Shown here piece by piece: positions 20,205-39,291 of a stretch of DNA of 53,208 nucleotides; the first letter of the stretch is position 1, and every line of letters begins with the position of its first letter. The stretch spans positions 1 through 53,208 of the forward strand of contig JAGCZO010000157.1 of NCBI GenBank assembly GCA_017959965.1, in the 5' to 3' direction. The stretch comes from Clostridia bacterium. Its GTDB lineage: Bacteria; Bacillota; Clostridia; UBA1212. The notes under the pieces are model-generated. The model had not been told where the DNA came from and searched no databases. It saw only the letters and a program-made list of their open reading frames with translations. Both the position numbers and the translations under genes were made by a program.

Positions 20205-21683
20205 TCAACCCGGACCGGTACGGAGCATGTATTTTCTGATGAAATACGAGGGGGTGCAGCTCCAGGCGTGGCAGAAGCTGTTCATAGCGGGAGAGCCGTA
20301 GGGTGAGGCTTCCGGATCTCCGGGCACGAATACCTCGGGGAAGCAGTCATAGCCGCGGTCAAGCATTCCGCCCCAATAGCTTTTGAGCAGGGCAAAAGCT
20401 TCGTCCTTAAGACCGGAAAGGATAAGCGCTTCGACGAAATAATGCATCGCATAGGGCGCCACGGGACTCACAAGCTCCGCTTTGAGAGCCGCCTTCATCA
20501 TTTCTTTCTGCTCCCGGGGCCCGAGAACTCCTGCGAGTGCCGCCCACATCTGGGAGTGGGCCGACAGCTGACCTGAGGCTCCCCGGAAAAGACGGATATC
20601 GGGGGAATACATATCAAGCAGCGCCGATGAAACGTCTTTGATCCGTTCTTCCAACGAAGCTTGTTCCCAGGCTGTGCCCACGGTATCGGCGAGATAAAGA
20701 GCCTCTTTGAACATTGCCAGGATCATTCCGAGGGCGGCGCAGGACTTGTCAAGAGACGGACACCAGTCGATGAAGAAAAGGTCGACGTTGGCGGAACGGC
20801 CGCACTGTTCGAAACTTTTGTAAGCAAGCTCGGTCTGGCGGTAAGCGGCGGGCCAGAGCTCCTTCAAAACGCCAATGTCACCCGTTGCCCTGTAGTAGTC
20901 TGCCAGGGCTCCGACAAAAAGCAGGGCGTAGTCATGGAGCACCCAGGACTGGTTTTTAAGCACCGGCTCGTGGAAGACCGCTGAGGAAAGAAGCCCGTCG
21001 TCATGGGGGAGGCCGGCGAACAGATACAGACAGCGGAGGACCAGGCCGTTGTTTTTGAAGGTATAATAGTTCGTCTTGGCCTGGAGGTAAAGGTCGCCCA
21101 GCCAGAGCCTCCGGTCCCTCTTGGGGCCGTCCTCGAAGACCTGCTGCATGCAGTCTCTGAGCGTCAGGAGGGAGACCTTGTCAAGCTTCACGAGAAGGGG
21201 GTCCGTGTTTTCCGGAAGAGGCGCGACCTTGGTCATATCGGCGGAGGTCACGGCCCTCACAAAACAGTCCTTGTACACCACGGAGTAGCTGGTGTTTGAC
21301 GGAAAGCGGATCTTCACGTATCTGAAGGAGTAGCGGCGGTGAAGCTCGATGGGCGCGTAAGGATCGTCAATGAGTACGCTTGCGTTCTGGAACCAGGAGC
21401 GGGACATGCCGCCGGTGTAGGGCTCATCCGTATTTTCCCGCAAATTTTCGAAAAATCTGAACTCGACTGCCAGCGGCGCGTCCGCCGCGTCGTCCCCGGG
21501 CCTTTTCACGTCAAGGGCCAGCGTCAGATAACCGACGAAATGGGAGCCGAAATCCAGAGTGAAACCGTCTCCGTCCCTCATCAGTCTGTCCTTGCCGGGC
21601 ATTCCGGAGACCGGCCGCACCGTCGTCTCGTAAAGGACGGGCATAAGGTCATGCGCTTTTTTCAAAAAACGGTCATCCTTCAT
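20205..21683 (-). CDS. GH78-like alpha-L-rhamnosidase family protein (no signal peptide)
   Basis: LDFGSHFVGY, RYSFRYV, DGPKRDRRLWLGD, SFCHAWS; ATG at 21683 overlaps the upstream TGA (ATGA). Confidence 0.8.
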   Translation of the reverse strand: MKDDRFLKKAHDLMPVLYETTVRPVSGMPGKDRLMRDGDGFTLDFGSHFVGYLTLALDVKRPGDDAADAPLAVEFRFFENLRENTDEPYTGGMSRSWFQNASVLIDDPYAPIELHRRYSFRYVKIRFPSNTSYSVVYKDCFVRAVTSADMTKVAPLPENTDPLLVKLDKVSLLTLRDCMQQVFEDGPKRDRRLWLGDLYLQAKTNYYTFKNNGLVLRCLYLFAGLPHDDGLLSSAVFHEPVLKNQSWVLHDYALLFVGALADYYRATGDIGVLKELWPAAYRQTELAYKSFEQCGRSANVDLFFIDWCPSLDKSCAALGMILAMFKEALYLADTVGTAWEQASLEERIKDVSSALLDMYSPDIRLFRGASGQLSAHSQMWAALAGVLGPREQKEMMKAALKAELVSPVAPYAMHYFVEALILSGLKDEAFALLKSYWGGMLDRGYDCFPEVFVPGDPEASPYGSPAMNSFCHAWSCTPSYFIRKYMLRTGPG

Positions 21684-24184
21684 TTCTCTTTGCGCCTCTT
21701 TGTTTTTTTGCATAACGCCAATGCGCCCGCGGCAAGGGCCGCCGGAAGAGCTCCCGCAGAGACCCCGGCGCCGCAGCCGGAGGGATCCTTGCCCGCGGGG
21801 TATGCCGCGGCCGCGAACTGGTATTTAAACCTTCCGCCGGGGGCGGTATCTCCCTTGGTGTAAAGCTCCAGAGGATCGCTGCCGTCCGCAAGGTTGTTGT
21901 CCGCCCATTTAAAATTCAACACGAAGGGAACTCCTCTGCCGAGGCCCAGGGCCTCACGGGGGATCTTCAGCTGAAGGATGTTGGCGTTTACCGAAAGCTC
22001 TGCCTCGCCGGTCTTTTCCCAGCTCCAGCCGCCGGAGGATCTCTCAACGGCAGTTATGGAGGAGGCGCCGGGGCTCAGACGGTTGACGATATAATTGAAG
22101 GATTCCCAGGATGGAAGCTTCACTGCCTTGCCGTTTACGGACTCAACGTCTATCAGGAGCCTCATCCAGAGTTCGTCCGTCGGAGACGTGATGTCTTCTG
22201 CAGTTTCGACTCTGAAATACACGAAGTCATTGTCGTAGGAGGCTTTGGCGGACACGATATCGTTGCGGCCGCTCTGATCCTGATACAAGTAATACTCGCC
22301 GGTGGCCTCGTTTTTGTATCCCTTGCAGTCTCTGTCAAATGTGTCGCCGGGGTAGCTCTCGTAAACGAGCTTAACGTCGTCCCAGCCTGCGCCGGTACCG
22401 ATGTCAATTGTGGCGGGCTCCTCCGCTACCGAAGCGGCGGGAACGCCTTTGTACTTTCTGATGAAGCTGCAGAGCTGGTAGTAGTAATTGTCCTTCAGGT
22501 CGCCTTTCGAGGGCTCGATGTCGCGGCTTAATTCGTCGCTGAAATTGTCTGGAAAAGCGTTTTCGACGCCCCAGAAGTCCTCAAAGCGGCCGGCGACGCC
22601 TTCGTTCCAGCCTGTGACCCATATGAACTCGGGATCCACGCTGAGGGCATACTCCCATTGCTCCTGAAAGTACGCTCCGTAGAGTTTGGCGTCGGGACGG
22701 CTGTCGTAATCGCCTTTCGAAGGCATATAGTGGCGCCCGAAGACCTTGAACTTGTCGTTGTTCATGGCCGTAAGGTGTGTCTCGGCGCACCAGTTGTGGG
22801 CAATGGCCACTGCGACCTCCTCGGGGGTGCCGTCAGGGTTCCTGTTTATGAGCTGGGGGGTGGTGGAGATCCAGTTCCAGAGCTGAAAGCTGTCCGTCAC
22901 CTCGGACTGGATGGCTCCCATGACGATGGGATCGCCGGATTCGCTCTGTACCTGGACGTGGTCCCGGGACTGGGCGTGGTTGATCACCCGGTAGTTGAAG
23001 AATTCGTAGATCTCCTTGTCCTCTTCCTTAGAAAGGTTCAGCCTTCCGGGATAGCCAACCATGAGGGGCTTGCCCTTCCAGTAAAACCAAAGCTCCCTAT
23101 AGAGTCCGTCCTTGTAGATATTTTTGTAGATCTCCCGGAGCTGGACCGCCACGTCGTTGTACTCGAACATGGGAAGCATGAAGGATATCTTCGGCGTGTT
23201 CACTCCGTCGGCCCTGGCGAGAGACCAGACCTTCAGCAGCGTCAGAACGTCGTCAATGAAGGTGGCGGTGCCGTTGGTGTTGTCGAAGAACACCGCATCC
23301 ACTCCCGCATCGGCAAGGAGCTCAGCCTGGCGCCTCAGGACCCATTCGTCGGAGCTTCTGTAGTAGCCCCAGATCGGCTCGTTCCAATGGTACGCGCCGG
23401 CGTGTCCCCAGAGAGGACTTGAATAGTCGTTCTTTATCTCGGGGTGCTCCCGAAGTATCTCCGTGATGTTCCTTGTGCCCGATGCGGTGAGACTGGTGTG
23501 CCAGGTGTGGAAGAAAAGTCCCACAGTTTTGTTTTCCCTTACGGTGCTGCTGTAGGAATTGTCAACGGTCCTGCCAAGCTCGTCGATGGCCACCCAGGTG
23601 CCTTGCGAAGAGACGAGCTTCACAACGTTTTCGGAGATCCCCGCCAAAGTGCCCCCGGCGTCTTTAAAAATGATCCTCGAAAGGATATTCCCCTGCCTGA
23701 CGGAGGCGTTGAAGTAGGTCCTTGCGTAGGGCGAGACCGCGGAATCGATGCTCAGCCGGACGCCTCCCAAAGTGTTCTTGATCAGGGCAACGTACTCTCC
23801 CGCAGGCGCCGGACAGTCCATCCGAAGCCAGGTCTGCATGTCGAAATCCTCGAATTTCCGCGTGAAAATCGCACTGCTCCGGGCAGACTCCCCATAGCTT
23901 CCCTTCCATTCGTGAAGCTCCACGGTGAGGCTCGTACCGCTCCCGGAAGCCGTCTTGGCAACGTATATTTCGAAAGCGTCTATTTCCTGACACGATTTAA
24001 ACTGTATGCCGTAGATATTGCCCGCGGTCTTTTCAAGGGAAAAGTCCGACTCCGGGCAGCACAAATACTGATAGCTTCCGGCCGCCATAGATCTTAAAAC
24101 ACCCCCGGTGAAAAATGAGGAGGCGACTGCCGCCAATGCGACCGTTACCGCCAATGTGATCCTGATAAATCGTTTTATACTCAT
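21680..24184 (-). CDS. Secreted GH71/GH99-like putative glycoside hydrolase, paralogue A; C-terminal SGCG-TM-basic tail
   Basis: Signal peptide; DELGR, VGLFFHTW, HWNEPIWGYY, DAGVD..FFDNTN, VTGWNE, SRDIEP, FKWADN, GDTAPGGRF. Confidence 0.7.
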   Translation of the reverse strand: MSIKRFIRITLAVTVALAAVASSFFTGGVLRSMAAGSYQYLCCPESDFSLEKTAGNIYGIQFKSCQEIDAFEIYVAKTASGSGTSLTVELHEWKGSYGESARSSAIFTRKFEDFDMQTWLRMDCPAPAGEYVALIKNTLGGVRLSIDSAVSPYARTYFNASVRQGNILSRIIFKDAGGTLAGISENVVKLVSSQGTWVAIDELGRTVDNSYSSTVRENKTVGLFFHTWHTSLTASGTRNITEILREHPEIKNDYSSPLWGHAGAYHWNEPIWGYYRSSDEWVLRRQAELLADAGVDAVFFDNTNGTATFIDDVLTLLKVWSLARADGVNTPKISFMLPMFEYNDVAVQLREIYKNIYKDGLYRELWFYWKGKPLMVGYPGRLNLSKEEDKEIYEFFNYRVINHAQSRDHVQVQSESGDPIVMGAIQSEVTDSFQLWNWISTTPQLINRNPDGTPEEVAVAIAHNWCAETHLTAMNNDKFKVFGRHYMPSKGDYDSRPDAKLYGAYFQEQWEYALSVDPEFIWVTGWNEGVAGRFEDFWGVENAFPDNFSDELSRDIEPSKGDLKDNYYYQLCSFIRKYKGVPAASVAEEPATIDIGTGAGWDDVKLVYESYPGDTFDRDCKGYKNEATGEYYLYQDQSGRNDIVSAKASYDNDFVYFRVETAEDITSPTDELWMRLLIDVESVNGKAVKLPSWESFNYIVNRLSPGASSITAVERSSGGWSWEKTGEAELSVNANILQLKIPREALGLGRGVPFVLNFKWADNNLADGSDPLELYTKGDTAPGGRFKYQFAAAAYPAGKDPSGCGAGVSAGALPAALAAGALALCKKTKRRKEK

Positions 24185-24257
24185 ACTTTTGTCCTTCGGA
24201 TATCGCCAAAATATCCGGCATTTGTTCTCCTGTGTGTCCGGAGGAACCTCTTCACCG

Positions 24258-25004
24258 TCAGTCGATCCCCGACGGGCTGAGAGGCCCGTATTTATTGGCA
24301 GGAGTCTTAAGGTACTTGATGTTCATGCAGACGGACACGTCGTACCAGACCTCGTCGTCAAGGTACGATCGCTGACATTCGCACTCCGAGTCCATGTACC
24401 AGACGCCGGAATTCTTCATGTTTTCACTCGAATAGTATTCCGCCGTAAGCACGTACTCACCGGCGGGGAGGCTGTCGACCTTGAGAGGCACGTTGGCGCC
24501 GTCCGCCCAGTTCTCAAAACTGCCCCCGGCAACAGGCCTTCCGGCCACAGTGTGCGGAAAGTCCCTGTCCCATTTGTAGAGAGTGTAATCCAGCGAATAG
24601 CCGTCCTTTGCCGTCCACGTGGGTGACTCAAACCCGACGCCGGAAAAATCGGCGGTGGCGTAGAACTGCACGGCAATGGAATGCCCGGTCCCGCAAAAAG
24701 GTTCTTTCGTGCCTCCGGAGGGATACATTGCGAACGACAAGGGCTTATCCTTCACGATGCCTCCGGAATAGTCGACGGCTGCTTCGGGCTCCTTGGTGGG
24801 AGAGGGCGCGGCGGCTTCCTCCCCCGACGTGGGAGCGGGAGTCGTTGTGGGGACCTCGGCCTTTTCGGAAGCGGGAGTCTCCGTGCCGGCAGAGGGAACG
24901 GAAACGTCCGGCTCTTTTACGCCGCAGCCCGCAAGGACGCAGAAAGCCGTCAGAACCAAAAAGATAAAGATGACGGCGCGCAGTTTTCTCTGATTTACTG
25001 CCAA
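24258..25004 (-). CDS. Lipoprotein with PT linker and beta-rich putative binding module
   Basis: Lipobox LAGC; TTG at 25004 follows GGGAG at suitable spacing (start uncertain); SPTW..LYKW..LPAGEY module. Confidence 0.7.
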   Translation of the reverse strand: MAVNQRKLRAVIFIFLVLTAFCVLAGCGVKEPDVSVPSAGTETPASEKAEVPTTTPAPTSGEEAAAPSPTKEPEAAVDYSGGIVKDKPLSFAMYPSGGTKEPFCGTGHSIAVQFYATADFSGVGFESPTWTAKDGYSLDYTLYKWDRDFPHTVAGRPVAGGSFENWADGANVPLKVDSLPAGEYVLTAEYYSSENMKNSGVWYMDSECECQRSYLDDEVWYDVSVCMNIKYLKTPANKYGPLSPSGID

Positions 25005-25076
25005 TAGCTTCACTCCCTTTTCCGCGAATCGAAAGCAGATCAAAAGTCAAATCAAGGTGTACAAAAATCAAAAATA

Positions 25077-25105
25077 AATATATCAGATTTCCGGAGACAA
25101 AACAA
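25077..25105 (-). promoter_or_regulatory. Putative promoter of the lipoprotein/paralogue A/GH78 operon
   Basis: Minus strand TTGTTT-17 nt-TATATT with extended TG. Confidence 0.45.
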
Positions 25106-25119
25106 GATTTTCGGCAGCT

Positions 25120-25141
25120 CAATGCGGCGCAATGCGGCGCA
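25120..25141. repeat. 10-bp tandem repeat containing GCGGCGCAATG
   Basis: CAATGCGGCG x2 followed by CA. Confidence 0.7.
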
Positions 25142-25270
25142 TAATTGCCGGAAGCGATAACGCCGGTAAGCGCCGGGGATCCTTCTCCGCGGGGCCCCAC
25201 TCCCTCCTTTTTTTCCCCGGCGGGGTGTAGTATAATTGGCTTGCAAAAGCAACTGAAAAGAGGGAAAAAA

Positions 25271-27850
25271 GTGAACGGATCAAAACGTTTTATTGTCAGG
25301 ATCGCATTGGCGGCAGTCGCCGCGGTAATTCTCGCGGGAATATCGGCGTTTTCGGGAGGATCCGCGGCCGCGGAAGACGCAGGCTCTGTCGTGTACCCTT
25401 TGTGGTACGAAAAATACGGCGCCCGGGACGAGGACACGTGGAAACCGGGCATGAGTGTCCAGTACCAGATATCGACCACTGTGCCGATAAAATCCGTGAC
25501 GCTGAACTATTTTCACTCCACGTCCTCAGAGACGGGACCTGTCGGACTTGAGTTCACGGTGAGAGTGTACAAGTGGGACACCAATATTCTGCAGTCCATC
25601 GGGGCGGAGCCTATATTAACGCAAAAATGCGTATCATATGAGAAAAAGGAAGCCGATTCGGACTACGCGGTCACATGCGATATGTCCGCCGATCCCCTTC
25701 CAAAGGGTGAATACGTTTTTGAATTCGAGAACAATAACAGCTTTTCAGTTTTGCTGTCGAGGCTCATGCCCGCGCCCACGGGCGTCAGGAGCTACCTGGC
25801 GGGAAGGGGCTGGTACGGTTCATTCCCCGGCAGCATTGAATTTACGGAGGACGCGAAATTCGTTTTCCGCTCCGCCACGTCAAACTATAAGCTTGTCTAC
25901 AACGAACCCCCGGAGGAGCCTGTGCTGACCGAGGACGACCCCATCGTTTCCCTTGGCGTCGATTCCACAAAGTGGGGCGCGGTGGACGGCCTGGGAAGAA
26001 CTCTGCCGGACAACAGTGAGACCGGCGATAAGAAGGAAAAGCTCGTCGGCATTTTCTACTGGACTTGGCACATGGGAAACCGCTCCAAGGAAAATCCCAA
26101 AAACATTAACAATATTCTTGAGGAATATCCTGAGGCGGTGAACGACTACTACCATCAGGTGTGGCAGACGGGAGGCGCCAATTTCTGGAATGAGCCCATA
26201 TACGGATACTATATCGAATCGGACGACTACGTTCTCAGAAAGCACGCGGAGCTGCTTGCGGACGCGGGCATTGACTTTGTTCTTTTCGACTGCACGAACG
26301 GCTCCATGGTGTGGACCGAAGCCTACATGAATCTGCTCAGGGTCTGGTCCGATGCCCGCAAGGACGGTGTAAAAACTCCTAAAATTGCGTTTATGATGCA
26401 ATTTGACTACAGCGGCAACACCAGGGCCTCCCTCTGGGATATCTACACGAACCTCTACAAGAAAGGATTTTACAAGGATCTTTGGTTCTATCTTGACGGC
26501 AAGCCCATGGTGATGGCCTGGGAGACGGGACTTGACACCAACGTCGGCGATGAGGCCGAGATCAGGTCCTTCTTCACCTACAGACATCCCATTGCCGGCT
26601 ACTGGGCCCAGGACGGAACCGACGACAGCTGGGGCTGGCTCAGCGCGTATCCCCAGGCCTGCTACTACAACGAGGACGGCACGGTGGAAATGACCACGGT
26701 GGGTATTGCCCAGAACGCCAATTACGAGACCCGGAGTCTCAGCGCCATGAACAGCGGCAAAAACATGGGCCGGTCCTACGCCGCGCAGCCGAATTATTCC
26801 TACAGCTACACTTACCGGGGACGAAGGATCACGGTGGACTCCAAGATCGAGAACAGCAAGCTCTACGGCCGCAATTTCCAGGAGCAGTGGGACTACGCCA
26901 TCTCCAAGGACCCGGAGATAGTTTTCGTGACGGGCTGGAACGAATGGATCATGGGCAGGTACGAGGAATGGTGCGGCGTCAGCAACGCCTTCCCGGATCA
27001 GTGCAACGACGAGAACTCCAGAGACATTGAACCCTCAAAAGGCGACCTCAAGGACTATTACTACTACCAGCTCGTCGCCAACGTCAGACGCTTCAAGGGG
27101 ACCTCGGAGCAGGACTATCAGCCGGACCCGAAGACTATTGATTTCTCAGGCGAAATGAGCCAATGGGACGACCCCTCGATCGTGACCTACAACCACTACG
27201 CGAATAATACTTTGCCAAGGAACAACATCGGCTTCGGCGAGCTGAAATACGTTTCCGAAGGTATCAGAAACGACTTCGTACAGACGAAAGTCTCCTACGA
27301 CAAAGACAATCTGTGGTTCTACGTAAAGACCGCCTCAGGCATAACTCCCTTCGAGGCCGGCAACTGGATGACTCTGCTCATAGACTCCCGGGCTGCCACG
27401 GCGTTTTCGAAGGACTGGGAGGACTTCGAATACATAATAGGGCGCGAAGGCACCACGGAGGATACGATGGTCCTGGAAAAGAGCACCGGCGGCTGGAACT
27501 GGGAATCCGTGGGAAACGTCAAATACCGCGTGTCGGGAAATGAAATGGTGATCGAGGTGCCCCGGAAGCTGCTGGGCGGCGCGGGCAGCTCCCTTGATTT
27601 CGGTTTCAAGTGGTGCGACAATAACCTTGCCGAGGGCGACATAATGGACCTTTACACGGACGGGGACGCGGCCCCCGGCGGAAGGTTCGTGTTCAGATTC
27701 GCGACGAAGCCCTCAGTTAAAAACGGCTGGGTGATACCGGTGATCATAGTCTGCTGCGCAGTCGCGGCGGCGGCCGCATTGGCGGTCGTGATCGTCGTTC
27801 TTAAGAAGAAAAAAGCGGAAAAACCCGCCGAAAACGTTAAAAACGATTGA
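25271..27850 (+). CDS. Secreted GH71/GH99-like putative glycoside hydrolase, paralogue B; C-terminal TM anchor
   Basis: GTG start 25271 gives a signal peptide; DGLGR, VGIFYWTW, FWNEPIYGYY, DAGIDFVLFDCTN, VTGWNEW, SRDIEP, FKWCDN, GDAAPGGRF; hydrophobic tail plus KKKK. Confidence 0.7.
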   Translation: MNGSKRFIVRIALAAVAAVILAGISAFSGGSAAAEDAGSVVYPLWYEKYGARDEDTWKPGMSVQYQISTTVPIKSVTLNYFHSTSSETGPVGLEFTVRVYKWDTNILQSIGAEPILTQKCVSYEKKEADSDYAVTCDMSADPLPKGEYVFEFENNNSFSVLLSRLMPAPTGVRSYLAGRGWYGSFPGSIEFTEDAKFVFRSATSNYKLVYNEPPEEPVLTEDDPIVSLGVDSTKWGAVDGLGRTLPDNSETGDKKEKLVGIFYWTWHMGNRSKENPKNINNILEEYPEAVNDYYHQVWQTGGANFWNEPIYGYYIESDDYVLRKHAELLADAGIDFVLFDCTNGSMVWTEAYMNLLRVWSDARKDGVKTPKIAFMMQFDYSGNTRASLWDIYTNLYKKGFYKDLWFYLDGKPMVMAWETGLDTNVGDEAEIRSFFTYRHPIAGYWAQDGTDDSWGWLSAYPQACYYNEDGTVEMTTVGIAQNANYETRSLSAMNSGKNMGRSYAAQPNYSYSYTYRGRRITVDSKIENSKLYGRNFQEQWDYAISKDPEIVFVTGWNEWIMGRYEEWCGVSNAFPDQCNDENSRDIEPSKGDLKDYYYYQLVANVRRFKGTSEQDYQPDPKTIDFSGEMSQWDDPSIVTYNHYANNTLPRNNIGFGELKYVSEGIRNDFVQTKVSYDKDNLWFYVKTASGITPFEAGNWMTLLIDSRAATAFSKDWEDFEYIIGREGTTEDTMVLEKSTGGWNWESVGNVKYRVSGNEMVIEVPRKLLGGAGSSLDFGFKWCDNNLAEGDIMDLYTDGDAAPGGRFVFRFATKPSVKNGWVIPVIIVCCAVAAAAALAVVIVVLKKKKAEKPAENVKND

Positions 27851-31232: not shown

Positions 31233-31982
31233 TCAGGCCGCGATTATCTCGATCTCGCCTATCTGCATCAGTATGCCGTCAACTCCCGACGGAACGTCGT
31301 AGAGCTTTGTGGCAACGAACTTAACGTATCCGGCGGTGACGGCGTCGAACGTCAGTACGACGGGTTTGGTGCTGCCGGTCTTCGCGTTTTTGCACCCTTC
31401 GACGGAGGCCACAGTGGTGTAATTCTTTCCGTCAAGAGACACCTCAATGTGGAAGTCCACCGGGAAGCAGGAGCCTCCGATGGTGGGGCAGACGTTGACG
31501 GTGTCTATGAGAGTGTATTTCTCGAGCTTGAAGATCATCCACTCCTCCTGGTCCGGGTCGTCCTGATTGACGCCCACGTTGGTGGTCCAGCCCAGGCTGG
31601 GCTGCTCAAGGGTCGTATCGTAAATAATACCGTCGTTTATAAACTCATAGGACCAGCCCCATTGCACGTGGGTGTCGCCCGTTGTCGACGAAACGTCTTC
31701 GATATCGGCGGTAAGAGCAACGTTGACTCCTTTTTCGATAGTCGGGTCCGCGGTGGGAACCGGGGTCGGGGTAGGCTCCTCCGTCGGCGCCGGAGTGTCG
31801 GTGGGCGCCTCAGTGGGGGCAGGGGTCGCTTCCTCCGCAGTTGCCTCTCCCGCAGTCTCGTTAACGCCCGGCGCGGCGCTTTCCGCGGGGCTTTCCGTGG
31901 ACGGTGCGCAGGAGCAAAGGAACGCCGCGGTAAGAACCGCAAGAACGGAGACAAAAACGGTGATAATTATCGTTTTTTTCAT
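31233..31982 (-). CDS. Lipoprotein with PT linker and discoidin (F5/8 type C, CBM32-like) domain
   Basis: Lipobox-like LCSC; NVAL..., INDG, EWMIFKL, FP.DFHIEVSLDG.NY, YVKFVAT, QIGEIEI; start MKKTII. Confidence 0.78.
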   Translation of the reverse strand: MKKTIIITVFVSVLAVLTAAFLCSCAPSTESPAESAAPGVNETAGEATAEEATPAPTEAPTDTPAPTEEPTPTPVPTADPTIEKGVNVALTADIEDVSSTTGDTHVQWGWSYEFINDGIIYDTTLEQPSLGWTTNVGVNQDDPDQEEWMIFKLEKYTLIDTVNVCPTIGGSCFPVDFHIEVSLDGKNYTTVASVEGCKNAKTGSTKPVVLTFDAVTAGYVKFVATKLYDVPSGVDGILMQIGEIEIIAA

Positions 31983-32011
31983 AGCTGAGATCCTCAAAAT
32001 CTTTTAGTTTC

Positions 32012-32037
32012 AAAGACCGGCGGAACGGTCTTTTTTA
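32012..32037. terminator. Terminator-like hairpin between the GH1 and lipoprotein genes
   Basis: AAAGACCG-gcggaa-CGGTCTTT plus T-run. Confidence 0.45.
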
Positions 32038-32058
32038 TTGGCGGCGTCAGTTCCCTGA

Positions 32059-33414
32059 TTATTTAAGAAAATCCCGGAACCAGGCGGCGCTGTCCTTTTC
32101 TATATAACCGTCTCCTTCTTTTCTCATGAGACCGAAACGGTAGCCGTAGCCTGCGGTCCACTCGAAATTGTCAAGGAGAGTCCAGGCAAAATATCCTCTC
32201 ACGTCCGCCCCTTCGTCAACGGCCTTTTTCAGCCACTCGAGGAAGCCTTTATAATAGCGGACTCTGGTGGGATCATGGATCACGGGCCTGCCGTTTTCCG
32301 TTTCGATCCTTTCGTTCAGTCCGAAGGTGCCGTTCTCAGTGATAAAAATGGGCAGATCGCCGGTGAAATTGGATCTGACGTTGGCGAGGGCGTCGTATAT
32401 CGCTTTTGGGTAGTACTCCTGGCCGTTGTCCATGAAGTTGCCGCCTCTGTGTTCGATCTCGTCCCGCGCTGCGGAGGGGTCTGAACTGTCGACGACCCGG
32501 TTGTAGCAGTTGAGACCAAAGAAATCCAGGGACTCGCATATGCTCTCCATATCTCCGGGCTGAATGTCGGGCATGGACCCGGTCTCCTCCATGTAGCGGA
32601 GAAGAGGCTCGCGGTAGAAGCCCTTGAAGATGGGACTCATGTAGGATCTGTAGGTCTTTTCGTTCTCCAGCTCCGCGATCCGGATATCACCGGGATCGTC
32701 CTTCCTTGCGGGGTGGTGGTGCCAGACGTCGACGACAATGCCAATGTTCGGATGGTCAAGCCCGAACTCCTTTTTGGGTCCGCAAACGTCCCTGAAGCGT
32801 CTCACAGCCTCGCCGTGGGCAAGGAGAAGATTGTGATTGGCCTGTCTGCCGCATTTTTCGCCTTTTCTGCCGGGGGCGAAGGCCCCAAGACTGTAGCCGA
32901 CGTACGTGGCGATTGGCTCGTTGAAGGTGGCGAAGAGGGGGATCTCATCCTTGAAGGTCCTGAAGATCAGCTCCGCGTAGTCCCCGAACCAGCCGGCAAT
33001 GTCCCTGGTGAGAAAACCGCCCCGGCACTCCAGCTCGAAGGGAAGGTCCCAATGGTAAAGAGTGGCGTTCGGCGTGATCCCCAGCTCCAGCATCTTGTCG
33101 ACAACGCGCCTGTAGAAGTCGAGACCGGCCTGATTCACCCTTCCGAAGCCGTCGGGGAGGATCCTTGCCCAGGAGAAGGAAAATCTGTGAGCGTTGAAGC
33201 CAAGGGACTTCATGAGCTCAAGCTGCTCCGGATACTTGCGGTAGTAGTCGCAGGCAACGTCCGGCGTGTCGTTGTTCCCTATTTTTCCGGGAATACGTGA
33301 AAACACGTCCCATATATTCAGGCCCTTGCCGTCCTCAAAAGCCGCGCCTTCGATCTGTGCCGCGGAGGTGGCAATTCCCCACAAAAAGTCTTCGGGAAAA
33401 TCCTTTCTGTTCAT
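32059..33414 (-). CDS. GH1 beta-glucosidase
   Basis: FLWGIATSAAQIEG, RFSFSW, TLYHWDLP, catalytic TFNEP and ITENG, DNFEW. Confidence 0.92.
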   Translation of the reverse strand: MNRKDFPEDFLWGIATSAAQIEGAAFEDGKGLNIWDVFSRIPGKIGNNDTPDVACDYYRKYPEQLELMKSLGFNAHRFSFSWARILPDGFGRVNQAGLDFYRRVVDKMLELGITPNATLYHWDLPFELECRGGFLTRDIAGWFGDYAELIFRTFKDEIPLFATFNEPIATYVGYSLGAFAPGRKGEKCGRQANHNLLLAHGEAVRRFRDVCGPKKEFGLDHPNIGIVVDVWHHHPARKDDPGDIRIAELENEKTYRSYMSPIFKGFYREPLLRYMEETGSMPDIQPGDMESICESLDFFGLNCYNRVVDSSDPSAARDEIEHRGGNFMDNGQEYYPKAIYDALANVRSNFTGDLPIFITENGTFGLNERIETENGRPVIHDPTRVRYYKGFLEWLKKAVDEGADVRGYFAWTLLDNFEWTAGYGYRFGLMRKEGDGYIEKDSAAWFRDFLK

Positions 33415-33469
33415 TCTTCGATCCTTTCGGTCAGGGCGGAGCCCCGGTCAAAACCTTAATAGGCAGCCT

Positions 33470-34639
33470 TTATTCGCCTGTCACGGTGGCGTAGACCACC
33501 TGGGCGTAAACTCTCGACATGAAGTCGTTGGGGTGGTTGATATTGTTTCCCGTGTAGTCCCGGAATCTCTTGGTCTCCAGCATGGAGAGACTCATGGCGG
33601 TCATCTGTCCAACGGCAATGTGTTTACCGAGAGCGGTGTATTCCTGCGCCAGCTCAAAGAAAACGCCTTCGAACAGATACTGATTGCCGTACCAGCCGTT
33701 CACCGCCTCGTTGTTGGGCACCATCGTTGCGAGAAGAAGCATCTCCACGTCGGGGACCATACCGTATACCGCTTCAATGGCGGCCTTCTGGAGCTCCTTT
33801 TCCGTCTCAAGGGAGTTCCCCGCGTCATTCATGCCAAAGGCAAGGAGCATAAAGTCGCAGCCGTATTTTTCTATGAACGGCTTGACGTAGGTGTCGAATT
33901 TCTCCACGCCGTCGTTGATCCTCCAGCCGCCGACGGCGGGGTTGATATAAGTGATCGTACCTCTTGTGCCGAAGACCGCCGGTTCCTCCGGGACCGCGTT
34001 GGTGCCGGGAAGATCCACCGATACGTATTTGACGGTGTAGCCGTACTTTTTGGCGAGGTAGTGGGTGAACATCCTGGGCCAGATGGGAGTGTGGGGCTCA
34101 AGGCCCAGCATTCCCGTTGCGGAGGCTCCGAAGGTGATGCTGTCGCCGTAGAACAGGAGGGTGACGTCTTTCCCCGCGTCAAGCTTTTTGAGAAGCCTTG
34201 CGAATTTCGCGCTTTCGTCATTGGGGATGAACAGCTTCCTGCCGCTTGAATGGGCGTAGGTCACGAACACCTGATATTTGCAGATGAGCTCGCTGAAATA
34301 GATGCTTTTTTCTTCGCCTCTGTCCATGACTTTGATCTGGAAGGGAAATTCCTTGTTATCCGAAAAATACAGCTCCTCAGGGATAAAACTGATCGTCGAA
34401 TCCTCCGTCAGCTCGACCTTGCCGTCCACCAGGTTGTAGTCTTTTCCTTCTTTGTATTCGGTCTTCAGGTCAAAGGAGCGGATCGAGATGATCCTGTCCG
34501 CGGGGTAAAGCAGGGGAGCCTTGTCGCCCCGGCCCACGAACATGACAGATTCGTTGTAGACGTAGGGGCCTTTCCAGACAGGCGCCATCCAGGTTTCGAT
34601 GTCGTACTTGTCAAGTACGGGTTTTCCGGTAATACTCAT
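33470..34639 (-). CDS. SGNH/GDSL hydrolase (putative carbohydrate esterase)
   Basis: YGDSIT, AFGMND, NINHPND blocks. Confidence 0.8.
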   Translation of the reverse strand: MSITGKPVLDKYDIETWMAPVWKGPYVYNESVMFVGRGDKAPLLYPADRIISIRSFDLKTEYKEGKDYNLVDGKVELTEDSTISFIPEELYFSDNKEFPFQIKVMDRGEEKSIYFSELICKYQVFVTYAHSSGRKLFIPNDESAKFARLLKKLDAGKDVTLLFYGDSITFGASATGMLGLEPHTPIWPRMFTHYLAKKYGYTVKYVSVDLPGTNAVPEEPAVFGTRGTITYINPAVGGWRINDGVEKFDTYVKPFIEKYGCDFMLLAFGMNDAGNSLETEKELQKAAIEAVYGMVPDVEMLLLATMVPNNEAVNGWYGNQYLFEGVFFELAQEYTALGKHIAVGQMTAMSLSMLETKRFRDYTGNNINHPNDFMSRVYAQVVYATVTGE

Positions 34640-34713
34640 AACAAATATCCTTTCAGATCGCTATATTAATTGCGCAAAACCGGGACCCGGAATGCGCCAA
34701 TGCTATATGCGGG

Positions 34714-34742
34714 ATTTTAGTATTGAAAGGGGGAAAAGTCAA
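34714..34742 (-). promoter_or_regulatory. Putative sigma-A promoter of the SGNH-GH1 operon
   Basis: Minus strand TTGACT-17 nt-TAAAAT. Confidence 0.65.
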
Positions 34743-34765
34743 GGTGCGGATGATGCAGTGGGAAT

Positions 34766-34813
34766 GACGCGCCTGGCGGCGCAATGCTAATGGACGCGCC
34801 TGGCGGCGCAATG
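34766..34813. repeat. Perfect 21-bp direct repeat x2 (period 27) between divergent promoters
   Basis: GACGCGCCTGGCGGCGCAATG at 34766-34786 and 34793-34813. Confidence 0.85.
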
Positions 34814-34841
34814 ATGCACTTTTAACACATGCGTCAAAATA

Positions 34842-34870
34842 TTGGCGCGGACACGTTTTTTTGATATAAT
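34842..34870 (+). promoter_or_regulatory. Putative sigma-A promoter of paralogues C and D
   Basis: TTGGCG-17 nt-TATAAT with extended TG. Confidence 0.6.
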
Positions 34871-34956
34871 AAAGCCAAACGACCGGAAACGGCGCCGTGG
34901 GTGCGCCGTGAAGATAAGATCACCGGAAAGATTCCGGGGAAAAACGGAGAACTGTG

Positions 34957-36810
34957 ATGACCCATTCGGAAAATTCTTCAACGCAAGGCTTTAAGTCAAT
35001 GAGACAAAACCGCACGTCCGCGTTTGCCAAGGCCCTCGCCTTGCTGGCAGCGGCTGTCGCAGTAATACTTTTGGCGTCGGGGTGCAGCACGGGCCCCGTT
35101 GAAACGTCCGACGAATACGTCAACACCTCCGAGGCGAGGAACAGTGTGACCTTCGCGGTGGACGACCTTGGCAGGAAGACCGTCACGGGGAAGGACGCTC
35201 CGGAAGCCCGGGAGGGTAAATACGTCGGCATTTTCTATTTTCTCTGGCTGGGCGAGCACGGCCTCAGCGGTCCCTACGACAACAGCGTCATCGAGAAGAC
35301 CCTCGGGTCCACTGCGTCGGAAAAGAACTGGATCGACGCCGGCGGCGGAAAGGAGAGGGCTCACCATTTTTGGGGCAAGCCTCTCTTCGACTACTACGTT
35401 TCATCCGATAAATGGGTCACCAGGAAGCACATCCAGATGCTTACGGACGCGGGAATTGACTTCGTGGTCTTCGACACCACGAACTCGGTTACGTACATTG
35501 ACAACGCGCTGAACTTCATTGCCATTGCCCACGAGTACAACCAGGCGGGGTTCAAAGCGCCCCAGGTGGTCTTCTACACCAACACCCGCTCCGGACAGAC
35601 CATGGAGGAGATCTACCGCAAGATTTACATGAAACACCGGGGCTTTTCCGACACCTGGTTCTGCCGCGACGGAAAGCCTCTGATCATCGGAGACAAATAT
35701 GACTCCGGACTTAGCGACGAGGCGTCGGCTTTCTTTACGTTCAAAGCCAATCAGTGGCCGAACGAGGACAAAAAGGACAACGGATTTCCCTGGATGGAAT
35801 TCAGCAGGCTCCTTTCGGATTACGCCGTCTACGGCGAACGGGGACGCAAAGAGATCGTGAACGTTTCGGCGGCACAGCACTGCAACACCATCAGGTTCAG
35901 CGCCACGGCCTGGTACGGCGGTTCGGATCACACCAGAAGCTGGCACGACGGGGCCATCGACACCTCGCCGGACGCGTATCTTTACGGTTACAACATTGCC
36001 GAGCAGTACGAGTGGGCACTCAAAATGGACCCTGAGATAGTGTTTATCACGGGCTGGAACGAGTGGGTCGCCCAGAGACAGCCGGGAAGCGCAGACCAGC
36101 CTGTGGTGTTCGTCGACTGCTGCGACACCGAGTGCAGCCGAGACATCGAACCCATGGAGGGCGGCTTCTTCGACAACTACTACATGCAGATGATATCCTT
36201 CGTCAGAAAATTCAAGGGCGTTGACGCGGACACCTCCGCCGTCAGGAAGACCATAAGCATCGACGGAGGGTTTGCCCAGTGGAACGACGTGGCGGCGTAT
36301 TACGTTGACTACGAGAACGATACGGTGAACCGGGACTGGTACATCTTCGGATCCACTGAAATACAGAACACCACCGGAAGAAACGATATCGTTGAAATGA
36401 AGGTCTGCGAGGATACGCAATACGTCTATTTCTTCGTAAAAACCGCCAATGACATCACCGAGCCCTCAGAGGACTGGATGAGGCTCTACATCGGCACCTA
36501 CGGAAAGGGCCGCGGCGGCTACGACTACTGCGTCAACTACAAAGCACCCGACAAGGAAGGAAAGCTCCACGTCGGAAAGATCGCTCCCGGCACGGGCGAC
36601 TACAGCTTCACGGAGGCCGGCGAGGCAGATTACAGGATCAAGGACAACATGATGATGCTCAGGGTCAGAAAGAGCACCATTGGCGTGTTCATAAACGCAA
36701 ATATTATATTCAAGTGGGCCGACAACTGCGGCGACAACGTTGAAGGCTTCTACAAAAACGGCGACGCCGCTCCCATCGGAAGGGCGGGGTACTGCTACGG
36801 TAACAGATGA
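34957..36810 (+). CDS. Lipoprotein GH71/GH99-like putative glycoside hydrolase, paralogue C
   Basis: Lipobox ASGC; DDLGR, VGIFYFLW, FWGKPLFDYY, DAGIDFVVFDTTN, ITGWNEW, SRDIEP, FKWADN, GDAAPIGR; start 34957 or 34999. Confidence 0.7.
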   Translation: MTHSENSSTQGFKSMRQNRTSAFAKALALLAAAVAVILLASGCSTGPVETSDEYVNTSEARNSVTFAVDDLGRKTVTGKDAPEAREGKYVGIFYFLWLGEHGLSGPYDNSVIEKTLGSTASEKNWIDAGGGKERAHHFWGKPLFDYYVSSDKWVTRKHIQMLTDAGIDFVVFDTTNSVTYIDNALNFIAIAHEYNQAGFKAPQVVFYTNTRSGQTMEEIYRKIYMKHRGFSDTWFCRDGKPLIIGDKYDSGLSDEASAFFTFKANQWPNEDKKDNGFPWMEFSRLLSDYAVYGERGRKEIVNVSAAQHCNTIRFSATAWYGGSDHTRSWHDGAIDTSPDAYLYGYNIAEQYEWALKMDPEIVFITGWNEWVAQRQPGSADQPVVFVDCCDTECSRDIEPMEGGFFDNYYMQMISFVRKFKGVDADTSAVRKTISIDGGFAQWNDVAAYYVDYENDTVNRDWYIFGSTEIQNTTGRNDIVEMKVCEDTQYVYFFVKTANDITEPSEDWMRLYIGTYGKGRGGYDYCVNYKAPDKEGKLHVGKIAPGTGDYSFTEAGEADYRIKDNMMMLRVRKSTIGVFINANIIFKWADNCGDNVEGFYKNGDAAPIGRAGYCYGNR

Positions 36811-36861
36811 CCGTTCCGCGGAACAGGACGCTTGTTTACAAACGGTAAGGAGAAACGACCT

Positions 36862-39291
36862 ATGAAAAAAATGCTGACGTTCATACTTATATTGGCGATG
36901 ATGCTGTCAATTCTTCCGGCGGGGAATATCGTATCCTTCGGAGATACCGCTCCCCATTACGAGCTGACAGCCGGAAAAGCCTATCCCGGCGGTTCTGTGG
37001 AGCTGACCATTTCGATCGCGAACAATCCCGGGGTCATTTCCCTGAGAAACTCGGTCACGTTCAATATGGACATTTTTACCCTTGAGTCCGTGGAGGATCT
37101 GGGGCTTCTGAACGGATTTACGACTCCCGCGCCGAAAAAGGTGTCCCCTTATACGCTGAGATGGGCGGACGCATTGGCGACGGAGAACAATTTCGCGAAC
37201 GGGGACCTGATCAAGGTCACGTTTACCGTAAATGAAAACGCGGCGCCCGGGAAATATGCCGTGACCGCGGCTCACCTTGAAGCCAGAAACGCAGGAGGAG
37301 AAAAGATCTACTTCACCGCCGCCACTACTGAGATCGAGATCCTTAAACCTCTCAAGGGCGACGCAGACGGCGACGGCGAGATCACGGACTGGGACGCAAT
37401 AATATTTAACAGGTACCTTGCGGGCTGGGAGGTCGAAATAGATCTTTCGGGGCTTGACATTGACGGCGACGGAGAGGTGACCGACTGGGATGCGATCATA
37501 CTGAGCCGCTATCTGGCGGGCTGGCAGATCGAACTGAACCCCGAGGAGACTCCCGTACCCACCCCTGAGTACACCGAAGAATACGTCAATACCGCGACCT
37601 ACAAGAACACGTACTCGATAGGCATCGACGACCTCGACAGAAAGCTTTATACCAGCGAGGCTCCGGCGATGAGAGAGAACCGCCAGGTGGGAATATTCTA
37701 CTTCCTCTGGATCGGCTATCACAGCAGCACTCTGTACGACAACTCAGTTATAGTGGCGAACGATCCCAACGCGATAAAGTCCGTTGACAACTGGATCGCT
37801 GCGGGCGGCGGCGGAGAGCAGGCTTTCCACTTCTGGGGCAAGCCCATGTTCGGCTATTATCCTTCAAACGAAAAGTGGGTCATGAGGAAACACGTTCAGA
37901 TGCTGACAGACGCAGGTATTGATTTTCTGTGCTTCGACGCCACCAATGCCTACACTTATTCTTCCAACGCTCTCAGCCTTATGAAGGTGCTGGAGGAATA
38001 CAGAGTTCAGGGCTGGAGAGTTCCCAAGGTGTGCTTCTACACAAACTCCAGTTCCGGAAAAACCATCAACACGATCTACAACGAGATATACAAGGCGCAC
38101 CCTGAGTATCAGAATCTTTGGTATTACTGGGACGGCAAGCCCATGATCGTCGGCGTTGCAGCTGACAGTGACCTTTCCGCTGAGGCCAAAAACTTCTTCA
38201 GAATAAAAGCAAGCGTCTGGCCCAACTCGGGCAGAACGGACGACGGCTTCCCGTGGATGGAATTCGGCAGGCTTCTTACGAACAATGCGGTCTACGGTCT
38301 CAACGGACGCAAGGAGGTCGTGAACGTTTCGGTGGCCCAGCATAGCTCCACCTGCACCTTCAGTCTGACGGCCTGGTACGGCTCCAACGACAGGACCCGC
38401 AGCTGGCACTCCGGCAAGAACGAAAAGGGTGCCGACGCATATCTCCACGGCTACAATTTCGCGGAGCAGTTCGAATGGGCCCTCAGAGTGGATCCGGAGA
38501 TGATCTTTATCACCGGCTGGAACGAGTGGATCGCCCAGCGTCAGCCACCGAGAAACTCGAGAGAACAGATCATATTCGTTGACAACGCCAGCGCCAACTG
38601 CAGCCGCGACATAGAGCCGATGGAAGGCGGATACGGCGACAACTACTACATGCAGATGATATCCTTCATCCGCCGCTACAAGGGCCTTGACGATGCGGGC
38701 GGAAGCTCGAAAAGGACCGTTGACCTGGAGAACGGATTTGCCCAGTGGAACGACGTTGAGTCTTACTACAAGGACTACGAGGGCGACGCCGTAAGGAGGG
38801 CCAACTCCACCTTTGAGAGAAAGGTGGACTACACGAACCGCAACGACATCACCGAAATGAAGGTGTGCGAGGACGACGGAAACGTCTATTTCTTCGTGAA
38901 AACCAAAGCCGATATCACGGACCCCGCCGCCAACGATTTCTCGCAGACCGGCTGGATGACCTTGTATATATCCACCGACCTGGACAAGGGCTGGAAGGGC
39001 GCGAACTACGTGGTCAATTTTGAGGCGCCATCAGACGGCAGGACCTCCATCGCCACATTGGCGAATTCCGACACCTTCACACCCATCAAGAGCGGCGAGG
39101 TGTCATACAGACTGTACGAGGACATGCTTATGATATCCATACCGAAGTCGATGATAGGCATCTCCGGCAAAGCCAGGCTGGGCTTCAGGTGGTCCGACAA
39201 CAACACCTGGGGAGACGTTTTCAGCTTCTACAAGAACGGCGACTCCGCGCCCATCGGCAGAAATTTCTACACCTACGGGTATGCGGACTGA
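36862..39291 (+). CDS. Secreted cohesin + dockerin + GH71/GH99-like catalytic protein, paralogue D
   Basis: Signal peptide; cohesin-like domain (A.PGGSVELTISIANNPG...GDLIKVTFTVNENA.PGKY); dockerin GDADGDGEITDWDA/DIDGDGEVTDWDA; catalytic motifs as in paralogue C; ATG 36862 after AAGGAG. Confidence 0.75.
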   Translation: MKKMLTFILILAMMLSILPAGNIVSFGDTAPHYELTAGKAYPGGSVELTISIANNPGVISLRNSVTFNMDIFTLESVEDLGLLNGFTTPAPKKVSPYTLRWADALATENNFANGDLIKVTFTVNENAAPGKYAVTAAHLEARNAGGEKIYFTAATTEIEILKPLKGDADGDGEITDWDAIIFNRYLAGWEVEIDLSGLDIDGDGEVTDWDAIILSRYLAGWQIELNPEETPVPTPEYTEEYVNTATYKNTYSIGIDDLDRKLYTSEAPAMRENRQVGIFYFLWIGYHSSTLYDNSVIVANDPNAIKSVDNWIAAGGGGEQAFHFWGKPMFGYYPSNEKWVMRKHVQMLTDAGIDFLCFDATNAYTYSSNALSLMKVLEEYRVQGWRVPKVCFYTNSSSGKTINTIYNEIYKAHPEYQNLWYYWDGKPMIVGVAADSDLSAEAKNFFRIKASVWPNSGRTDDGFPWMEFGRLLTNNAVYGLNGRKEVVNVSVAQHSSTCTFSLTAWYGSNDRTRSWHSGKNEKGADAYLHGYNFAEQFEWALRVDPEMIFITGWNEWIAQRQPPRNSREQIIFVDNASANCSRDIEPMEGGYGDNYYMQMISFIRRYKGLDDAGGSSKRTVDLENGFAQWNDVESYYKDYEGDAVRRANSTFERKVDYTNRNDITEMKVCEDDGNVYFFVKTKADITDPAANDFSQTGWMTLYISTDLDKGWKGANYVVNFEAPSDGRTSIATLANSDTFTPIKSGEVSYRLYEDMLMISIPKSMIGISGKARLGFRWSDNNTWGDVFSFYKNGDSAPIGRNFYTYGYAD

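Follow-up and report, generated by a model that had tools for sequence, protein, structure and literature searches.

Four surface-anchored proteins of a Clostridia bacterium belong to a large uncharacterised two-domain family of the GH99/GH71 fold group with an altered catalytic dyad

The stretch of DNA analysed here, referred to below as the window, comprises the 53,208 nucleotides of contig JAGCZO010000157.1 (positions 1 to 53,208, forward strand; assembly GCA_017959965.1) of a Clostridia bacterium (GTDB lineage Bacteria; Bacillota; Clostridia; UBA1212). Four of its open reading frames (ORFs), designated P0001 to P0004 (Table 1), encode secreted two-domain proteins of a large family that has yet to be characterised. 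The barrel of these proteins is a distant homologue of GH99, has GH99 and GH71 as its nearest folds, and lies below the Pfam threshold of both. With the placement relative to CAZy judged from Pfam, NCBIfam, the PDB and the literature, this is very probably a distinct GH99/GH71-like family with an altered catalytic dyad. What is new is a branch of the GH99/GH71 fold group that stands apart, has two domains and carries an altered dyad; the family is notable for its size, its missing annotation and its extreme lineage-specific expansion. As to function, sequence and model lead us to favour, with a probability of about 0.6, extracellular endo-acting glycanases with a rewired catalytic centre and a possible rhamnose-bearing substrate.

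An earlier note on this DNA had read the four genes as paralogues of an unassigned GH71/GH99-like enzyme. Four intact paralogues are indeed present. They align over ~600 residues with 107 invariant columns, P0001 shares 41, 32, and 29% identity with the other three, and the E-value of 5e-75 that BLASTP returns for the distant pair P0001 and P0004 (32% identity, 630 columns) places their paralogy far above chance. All motifs on which that note relied are visible in the alignment, namely D.L(G/D)R, VG(I/L)F(Y/F)..W, P...YY, DAG(I/V)D...FD.TN, TGWNE, SRDIEP, RND, F(K/R)W.DN, and GD.AP.GR, including the variants NEGVA, NEWIM, NEWVA, and NEWIA. All four frames are open. The longest ORFs of P0002, P0003, and P0004 begin upstream of the adopted starts (at 25145, 34954, and 36832), and GGAG-like ribosome-binding sites lie 6-8 nt upstream of the starts at 24184, 25271 (GTG), 34957, and 36862. 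The count of four, however, was an undercount, as the genome carrying the window (G000) holds 17 family matches. Grouped by identity, the copies of this genome form two groups (45-57% and 41-61% within, 27-36% between) plus singletons, with P0003 and P0004 in one group and P0001 and P0002 in the other. P0001 and P0002 also share, with two paralogues on contig C5 of the same genome (C numbers denote its contigs), an extra N-terminal domain of ~150 residues that has no Pfam match. A recent horizontal acquisition of the four genes was considered and rejected, the GC content of the region (0.54-0.57) being the same as in the rest of the window.

The description of the core as unassigned holds, since no window protein reaches any Pfam or NCBIfam threshold in this region. 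P0003 scores 16.1 bits (E = 0.008) against PF14307 (WbsX), below the cut-off of 25.1, and this model is matched by 2 of 46 family members. PF16317 (GH99; cut-off 33 bits) matches none of the four window proteins at E ≤ 1, gives sub-threshold matches in 15 of the 46 members (best E = 1.6e-7), and returns 4 weak matches, none over the cut-off, in a search of the whole genome; PF03659 (GH71) has no match at E ≤ 1 among the four window proteins. The NCBIfam model TIGR04145 weakly matches the β-sandwich of P0003, not any tail (E = 0.0013, 18.7 bits versus a cut-off of 50). A word-indexed search with P0003 matched 5,222 proteins among 8,000 candidates scored, and the names among the 120 matches listed are all "hypothetical protein" or blank. 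Searching 1.84 billion cluster representatives with phmmer gave 2,234 clusters (50% identity) at E ≤ 1e-3 and 868 at E ≤ 1e-30. Because nearly all of the matches listed span query residues ~60-616, and thus both domains, barrel and sandwich travel together. Eight clusters looked up by exact sequence were named "hypothetical protein" and once "GBS Bsp-like repeat-containing protein", no Pfam family is common to the 30 nearest ESM-Atlas clusters, and our literature search found no description of the family. More than 2,000 sequence clusters without name, structure or known activity make a visible gap in the enzyme catalogue for gut and soil metagenomes.

The AlphaFold2 model of P0003 (pLDDT 90.2, pTM 0.89) consists of a (β/α)8 barrel and a C-terminal β-sandwich, and was compared with known structures by Foldseek and by VIA, an aligner independent of Foldseek that reports Z scores. 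The top Foldseek ranks are GH99 and GH71 chains, with E ~2e-7, target TM-scores of 0.55-0.59, and 9-17% identity (13-17% to the GH99 structures). With VIA, human MANEA is found at Z = 18.5 (276 residues aligned, root-mean-square deviation 4.3), the unnamed "glycoside hydrolase-like protein" 5ngw at 17.1, and the GH71 enzymes Agn1p and AnGH71C at 15.6 and 15.4, while ordinary TIM-barrel glycosidases stay at 13 or below. The sequence evidence agrees: a profile of 46 family members (A2), compared with PDB sequences, finds BtGH99 at E = 6.4e-9, BxGH99 at ~2e-7, and MANEA at 5e-4, and aligns the family's WNEW on FNEWHE. A profile of only the four window proteins gave just IMPDH-type TIM-barrel noise at E ~1 in the same comparison. 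The GH71/GH99-like core and barrel fold that had been proposed are thus borne out. Two divergent lipoproteins of the same genome (C80:6410-8419 and C60:413-2119) match only the barrel (model positions 66-396 and 111-400) and are without the sandwich; the one on C60 has a weak PF16317 match. These barrel-only relatives may bridge the family and other GH99-like proteins.

The last 190 residues, modelled alone from a profile of 74 sequences of the C-terminal domain (A3), reach a pLDDT of 92.5. The nearest folds by VIA are CBM74 of Ruminococcus bromii Sas6 (Z = 12.4, 178 aligned, 18% identity), the DOMON-type γ subunit of ethylbenzene dehydrogenase (10.4), the putative carbohydrate-binding protein 4jpq (10.2), and CBM9 and the C-terminal domain of glucodextranase (both 9.6); GH71 chains are not among the matches listed. 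Foldseek gave no match for the sandwich at E ≤ 1e-3 (best E = 9e-3), and the domain alone matched no PDB sequence at E ≤ 10. The sandwich is present in every full-length family member, and its polar residues R460, N477, D590, and R610 (residue numbers of the family are those of P0003 unless stated) are near-invariant. Their conservation suggests a fixed role in substrate binding or cleft shaping, by analogy with what the available text of PMC12394665 proposes for the C-terminal sandwich of GH71.

Set against GH99 (BtGH99, BxGH99, and MANEA; PF16317), the family has the same (β/α)8 barrel, detectable common ancestry, and the motifs FY..W (β1), G.Y...D, RKH, GKP, and NEW with the first catalytic Glu. 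It differs in that the second Glu of EWHE is Ala, that an invariant D174 stands in the β3 loop where BxGH99 has Thr124-Trp-Trp126, that ~20 extra residues (FVD, SRDIEP) are inserted before α8, and that GH99 His154 and Glu156 on β4 are without counterpart; furthermore, it carries an obligatory C-terminal β-sandwich, has no member at the Pfam cut-off, and has rhamnosidase and arabinofuranosidase genes, not mannan genes, as neighbours. The GH71 α-1,3-glucanases AnGH71C and Agn1p belong to the same barrel superfamily, have the first dyad acid at the same place and, by the available text of PMC12394665, follow the same plan of a barrel with a tightly associated C-terminal β-sandwich. Both acids of their DYGE are essential, whereas the family has NEW(V/I)A, and the family sandwich is nearest to CBM74, CBM9, and DOMON-type folds, so that the two sandwiches need not be homologous. 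In the part of PMC13421300 available, a paper of 2026, "71/99-like" hydrolases are described as still little studied, and PmGH99 of Prevotella melaninogenica ("GH99_GH71_like") is presented as another bacterial, secreted, "71/99-like" protein whose substrate is not established; it is a single barrel with a complete DYGE dyad, whereas the family is two-domain and without the second acid. CBM74 of Sas6 and CBM9 have a β-sandwich fold similar to that of the last 190 residues of the family, but there is no sequence-family match (none in Pfam), and the domain is integral to the enzyme, unlike a mobile accessory module.

GH99 and GH71 use one dyad for two mechanisms. According to the available text of PMC12394665 and PMC13421300, EWHE in GH99 and DYGE in GH71 are versions of one D/E-x-x-E dyad, which lies at a common position and requires both of its acids. 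We counted residues in 375 distinct near-full-length members (302 database proteins and 73 from loci) aligned to the family hidden Markov model (HMM). The first acid, E370, is Glu in 372 members (Gln in two, Asp in one), whereas position 373, three residues on, is never Glu or Asp: it is Ala in 362, Met in three, Val in three, Phe in two, Ser in two, and Gly, Asn or Thr in one each. The absence of the second Glu, which had been noticed in the four window proteins, is therefore family-wide (0/375). Elsewhere in the barrel D174, D388, and D407 are Asp in 375/375, D397 is Asp in 373, E399 is Glu in 363, N177 is Asn in 374, and N369 is Asn in 373. The earlier note had called the acids of FD.TN and SRDIEP invariant, which stands for the FD.TN Asp; the SRDIEP acids D397 and E399 are only nearly so.

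Read from the DSSP string of the model, the conserved acids lie at or just past the C-terminal ends of the barrel strands: D174 and N177 end β3, N369 and E370 follow β7, D388 ends a short strand taken as β8, SRDIEP falls in the loop before α8, and D407 caps α8. On the alignment with BxGH99, whose numbering was fixed through the E336Q variant chain 6fwo, D174 corresponds to Thr124 and N177 to Asn127, on either side of Trp126, a subsite residue of BxGH99. The window itself holds outliers at the active-site motif. P0001 is the sole member of the 375 with Gly (residue 529) in place of the Trp after the catalytic Glu (NEW in 370/375), and P0002 is one of three with Met (residue 603) at the Ala position. 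Across the whole family, the alignment shows one dyad acid retained, its partner lost, and further acids fixed. The family is thereby a natural experiment on the GH99/GH71 active site, in which part of the dyad was given up and other acids became invariant.

The expansion is a property of the lineage. In the window's order the family is found in 39 of 41 genomes surveyed at E ≤ 1e-20, with a median of 14 copies and up to at least 32, the level at which the counts top out; from 14 to at least 32 copies in genomes of 2-3 Mb we estimate that the family makes up ~1% of the genes of this bacterial group. An even sample of 150 genomes of the class (E ≤ 1e-30, including G000) contains 10 positive genomes, all of which belong to the window's order or to one other family (5/5 there), and an even sample of 200 other genomes of the phylum, at the same threshold and with up to 6 candidates scored per genome, contains none. 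Further carriers are Paenibacillus, Cohnella, Hydrogeniiclostridium mannosilyticum, Planctomycetota, Verrucomicrobiota, Acidobacteriota, and Armatimonadota; dockerin, SLH, F5/8 type C, and GBS Bsp-like repeats are found as accessory domains in other members. The three sequencing runs holding at least half of the words from 34900-39400 of the window are labelled bovine gut or gut metagenome, and no RNA dataset is among the holders listed. The cultured carriers (Paenibacillus, Cohnella, and Hydrogeniiclostridium mannosilyticum), together with compact members of ~550-620 residues, make activity and mechanism directly testable.

The genome carrying the window (2.45 Mb, 96.6% complete, 8.35% contamination) divides its 17 matches into 12 near-full-length copies, two cut by contig ends, one broken by two TAG codons, and the two divergent barrel-only proteins described above. 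Contamination of this metagenome-assembled genome was rejected as the source of the high copy number, as match counts are 11-24 in seven genomes of this genus. The two TAG codons of the broken copy (C21:8823-10925; L101:8823-10925, minus strand) are in frame and divide it into ORFs of 419 and 260 aa. The break could mark a pseudogene or stem from a sequencing or assembly error.

A connection with α-L-rhamnosidases of family GH78 gives a hint at a substrate. In the window, a GH78-like gene starts 34 nt inside the 3′ end of P0001, which makes it the likely operon partner of P0001. To place this in context, we surveyed 80 foreign loci, kept from a scan with 600 pattern matches of which 592 were confirmed as family; L numbers denote family loci with their flanking DNA. 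ORFs were taken with a longest-ORF caller, which called the family ORF in 70 of the 80 loci and chose an antisense shadow ORF over the family gene in 9, and flanking ORFs were clustered by BLAST and scanned with Pfam (apart from L063 and L077, and with two ORFs only for L089). The commonest neighbour clusters are generic ABC ATPases (14 loci) and then GH78 (7 loci). Six of the seven GH78 loci are confirmed by Pfam; the seventh, in L035, is a 146-aa fragment placed by BLAST clustering only, with no Pfam match at 1e-5. GH78 directly adjoins the family member in L047, L049, and L073 as well as in the window, and an operon of GH78, DUF5722, family member, regulator, solute-binding protein, and permease is common to L046 and L049. 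L089 has GH78, a TonB-type barrel, and a family member, L053 has GDSL, GH78, GH127, and a family member, which is the window's own set, and L035 places a GH106-like gene and an ABC sugar transporter operon with a family member. In the family tree, the members adjacent to GH78 are spread over six or more separate clades. Two further family/GH78 pairs, ~1-3 kb apart, stand at G025:C76 and G026:C39 in the listed subsets (150 family matches out of 597 and 150 GH78 matches out of 371).

Copy numbers point the same way. Across 41 related genomes, family and GH78 counts correlate with a Spearman rho of 0.86 (0.67 given genome size; 0.74 on 15 genus means), and the GH43 control correlates with the family at 0.57, falling to 0.17 given genome size. 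The window's lineage is unusually rich in rhamnosidases, with 10 GH78 genes in the window's genome and 3-19 in each of 40 relatives. The neighbour genes scanned belong mostly to rhamnosidase and arabinofuranosidase families, and none to a mannan-related family. Taken together, the GH78 neighbourhood and the copy-number tracking suggest a rhamnose-bearing glycan as substrate, a proposal for which we put the chances at slightly under even.

Signal peptides, lipid and membrane anchors, and the dockerin place the proteins outside the cell. As an extracellular location excludes, on established knowledge, a nucleotide-sugar glycosyltransferase, we read the proteins as endo-acting glycanases. Paralogy, family size, fold, homology to GH99, the lost second acid, the invariant acids, the anchors, the lineage-specific expansion, and the GH78 association are observed, whereas hydrolytic activity, endo action, the identity of the acid residue, and the substrate are what we infer; from sequence and model, the members are probably real glycan-cleaving enzymes. 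In the mechanism that we propose, E370 at the top of β7 would serve as the first dyad residue, as base or as activator of the nucleophile. The second acid being Ala, its role as general acid or partner carboxylate would be supplied from elsewhere, and the model offers D174 (top of β3), D388 (top of β8), and the D397/E399 pair of the SRDIEP loop as candidate partners. The sandwich would help to hold a long substrate. Diverged surface copies (lipoproteins, copies with GCG and transmembrane tails, and one docked by cohesin and dockerin) might then cut a complex glycan into pieces whose breakdown would be completed by GH78, GH127, GH1, SGNH esterases, and similar exo-enzymes. The likeliest substrate class would be a rhamnose-bearing glycan, for example of the pectic rhamnogalacturonan I (RG-I), rhamnogalacturonan II (RG-II), or arabinogalactan-protein type, and the many diverged copies could provide many linkage specificities within that one class.

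Several observations weigh against this picture. Most other copies in the window's genome stand among housekeeping genes and not in sugar-utilisation operons, and with 10 GH78 genes in that genome one adjacency is near chance expectation. Six or seven GH78 loci of 80 are only a modest excess, and the copy numbers were correlated across genomes that are kin to one another (15 genera) and in which the family count stops at 32. The remaining neighbours vary (GH89 in two loci, GH16, GH27, and GH32-like), so that substrates may differ between clades. The nearest solved structure or characterised homologue is at only ~15% identity, and loss of the canonical acid could mean that catalysis was lost.

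On one alternative view, the proteins are non-catalytic pseudo-enzymes of the cell surface, in which barrel and CBM-like sandwich capture glycans that others cut. Absence of the second dyad acid from every one of the 375 members, the CBM74/CBM9-like domain that is always attached, the surface anchors on many copies, and the want of any known activity in the family would all suit binders. We nevertheless find it improbable, because E370 and four to five acids on the catalytic face are kept across phyla at 29-40% identity, a conservation stronger than binding alone usually demands. Moreover, two copies of the window's genome (C153:1615-3258 and C184:2916-4742) have no signal peptide and begin directly at the D.LGR motif; they may act inside the cell on imported oligosaccharides, a role that fits enzymes better than lectins. 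At the other extreme, the proteins might simply be very divergent endo-α-1,2-mannosidases or mannanases that use the GH99 mechanism, given that GH99 is the best match in both sequence and fold and shares FY..W, G.Y...D, RKH, GKP, and NEW. This we hold to be the least probable of the alternatives: the GH99 general acid is missing in 375/375, the PF16317 cut-off is reached neither by the four window proteins nor by any match in the genome, identity to GH99 structures is as low as 13-17% with an extra obligatory domain, and the neighbours scanned speak of rhamnosidases and arabinofuranosidases, with no mannan-related family among them.

Hydrolases may instead remodel the cell's own envelope or exopolysaccharide and leave dietary glycans alone. 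Copies scattered among housekeeping genes, or standing beside GT4 glycosyltransferases (L100), a Polysacc_synt flippase (L098), and, for a tandem family pair, a GT4 gene (L013), would fit such a task, as would membrane and lipid anchors that hold the enzymes at the cell's own surface; PF14307, the WbsX relative, is named after an O-antigen cluster gene. On the other hand, 14-32 diverged copies per genome are far above the normal need for self-remodelling, other members are fused to dockerin, SLH, F5/8 type C, and GBS Bsp-like repeats, exo-glycosidases accompany members in sugar-uptake loci of ABC or TonB type (L035, L046, L049, and L089), and copy number co-varies with GH78, which together make self-directed action unlikely. 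A different chemistry, i.e. a lyase, transglycosylase or phosphorylase, or substrate-assisted catalysis (e.g. through a uronate carboxylate), would make use of the room left by the small Ala at the second-acid position (362/375), and the GH78, GH127, and SGNH esterase neighbours would suit acidic pectic glycans. We likewise give it little credence, in that no metal-site or lyase-type motif was identified, every barrel neighbour at Z > 10 is a glycoside hydrolase or transglycosylase, and extracellular location argues against a phosphorylase.

Extracellular endo-acting glycanases therefore remain our preferred reading, and a bolder extension of it, improbable in our estimation, is that the proteins form a new GH family constituting the main depolymerase set of a whole ruminant-gut Clostridia order, cutting inside rhamnose-bearing glycans. 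An example target would be the α-L-rhamnosyl bonds of pectic backbones, on which no enzymes beyond lyases and the endorhamnosidases of phage tailspikes are known to act; a literature search for endo-rhamnosidases returned, at title level, phage tailspikes and reviews only. L-rhamnose being manno-configured, it is conceivable that the retained Glu acts on O2, as in the 1,2-anhydro-sugar route of GH99, and the lost acid would be replaced by D174, D388, D397, or a uronic-acid carboxylate of the substrate.

Table 1. Coordinates of the features discussed. Locations are window positions unless a contig or residue range is given; P0002 residues are counted from the longest-ORF start at 25145.
Feature	Location	Strand	Description
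GH78-like α-L-rhamnosidase homologue	20205..21713	-	Glyco_hydro_78_N and Bac_rhamnosid6H
P0001	21680..24184	-	834 aa; signal peptide, N-terminal domain of ~150 aa, barrel and sandwich (family HMM 21803-23632), Cys-containing tail
P0001 extra N-terminal domain	residues ~35-185	-	
P0001 key residues		-	D301, N304, N527, E528, A531, D546, D555, E557, D565
P0001 C-terminal tail (GCG-type)	21683..21781	-	SGCGAG, hydrophobic helix, KKTKRRKEK
P0002	25271..27850	+	GTG start, AGAGGG ribosome-binding site; signal peptide, N-terminal domain, barrel and sandwich (HMM 25931-27721)
P0002 extra N-terminal domain	residues ~80-260	+	
P0002 key residues		+	D382, N385, E600, M603, D618, D627, E629, D637
P0002 tail	27707-27847	+	C-terminal transmembrane helix and KKKK; without GC motif
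GH1 glycosidase homologue	32059..33414	-	Syntenic in L015; context only
SGNH/GDSL esterase homologue	33470..34639	-	Divergent, upstream of P0003
P0003	34957..36810	+	Lipoprotein, lipobox LLASGC, Cys44 at 35083-35085
P0003 barrel	35206-36228	+	Residues ~85-425
P0003 C-terminal β-sandwich	36229-36807	+	Residues 426-618
P0003 key residues		+	D174, N177, N369, E370, A373, D388, D397, E399, D407, R460, N477, D590, R610
P0004	36862..39291	+	Signal peptide, cohesin 36967-37272, type I dockerin 37354-37515, Pro/Glu/Thr linker, barrel and sandwich 37561-39288
GH127 β-L-arabinofuranosidase homologue	39393..41279	+	102 nt downstream of P0004, same strand
GCG-type tail, further window protein	10978-11817	-	Protein unrelated to the family
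GCG-type tails, other contigs	C1, C5, C15, C23, C37, C65, C83, C88, C92, C93, C105, C118, C121, C154, C186, C231, C233		
Cohesin-dockerin cassette, window	36967-37515	+	In P0004
Cohesin-dockerin cassettes, other contigs	C51, C233, C117, C133, C47, C91, C90, C222, C37, C212, C6		

A close look at the anchors shows that the four modes of attachment in the window are samples of genome-wide habits. All four are present as first described (Cys tail, C-terminal transmembrane helix, N-terminal lipobox, and cohesin/dockerin), except that P0001 and P0002 are both cases of a C-terminal transmembrane helix with a basic tail. The lipobox of P0003 (..AVAVILLASG|C44) was read from the sequence by eye, and a lipobox Cys starts seven family copies in this genome. 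Five copies end in (K/S)GC..G, a hydrophobic helix, and a basic cluster; P0002 is the copy with helix and basic tail but without the Cys motif, and a dockerin is present in P0004 only. Real as it is, the Cys tail of P0001 is not peculiar to this enzyme: a pattern scan of all ORFs of the genome gave 27 matches, of which ~23 have a clean [N/S/D]GCG[G/S] with helix and RKK tail after a Pro/Thr-rich linker. From its sequence, the combination of GCG, transmembrane helix, and basic tail resembles a dedicated signal for C-terminal sorting in which a Cys is conserved. The P0001 tail matches no NCBIfam family at E ≤ 10, and ten GCG-type tails compared with the NCBIfam sorting-signal models (LPXTG, MYXO-CTERM, Synerg-CTERM, PGF-CTERM, Firmicu-CTERM TIGR04145, and others) gave none over the cut-off, the best scores being 18.1 versus 22.5 for Synerg-CTERM and 18.3 versus 29 for GVDTG-CTERM.

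In P0004, Pfam identifies Cohesin at 32.4 bits (cut-off 24.1) and Dockerin_1 at 38.5 bits (cut-off 22.9), and a genome-wide search returned the same coordinates. That search found 50 dockerins and 26 cohesins over the Pfam cut-offs, and, read from the coordinates, at least 14 proteins of the genome have an N-terminal cohesin directly followed by a dockerin, like P0004. Such cassettes could chain proteins together. On C133, cohesins and dockerins alternate in one frame of 1,412 aa.

Beyond GH78, the surroundings of P0003 and P0004 recur in part. The neighbourhood of a family member and GH127 is found again in L015 and L053, and SGNH/GDSL esterase homologues adjoin family members in the same two loci, at 80% and 34% identity, respectively. 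A 1,320-aa DUF5722 protein stands between GH78 and the family member in L046:3927-7889 (Cohnella hongkongensis) and L049:3676-7641 (Paenibacillus sp. PL91). No paper on DUF5722 was found in the literature search; its Atlas cluster is the nearest one to P0003 that is named by Pfam only (score 0.77, a lead only), and it may be a further unclassified glycanase. Giant secreted proteins adjoin three family copies of the window's genome (L099:7114-11427 on C37, L101:11015-13291 on C21, and L103:2151-8342 on C60), with CotH kinase-like, Lamin-tail, CHB_HEX_C, and Fn3_assoc domains; two of them have RCC1 repeats and one carries a cohesin-dockerin cassette.

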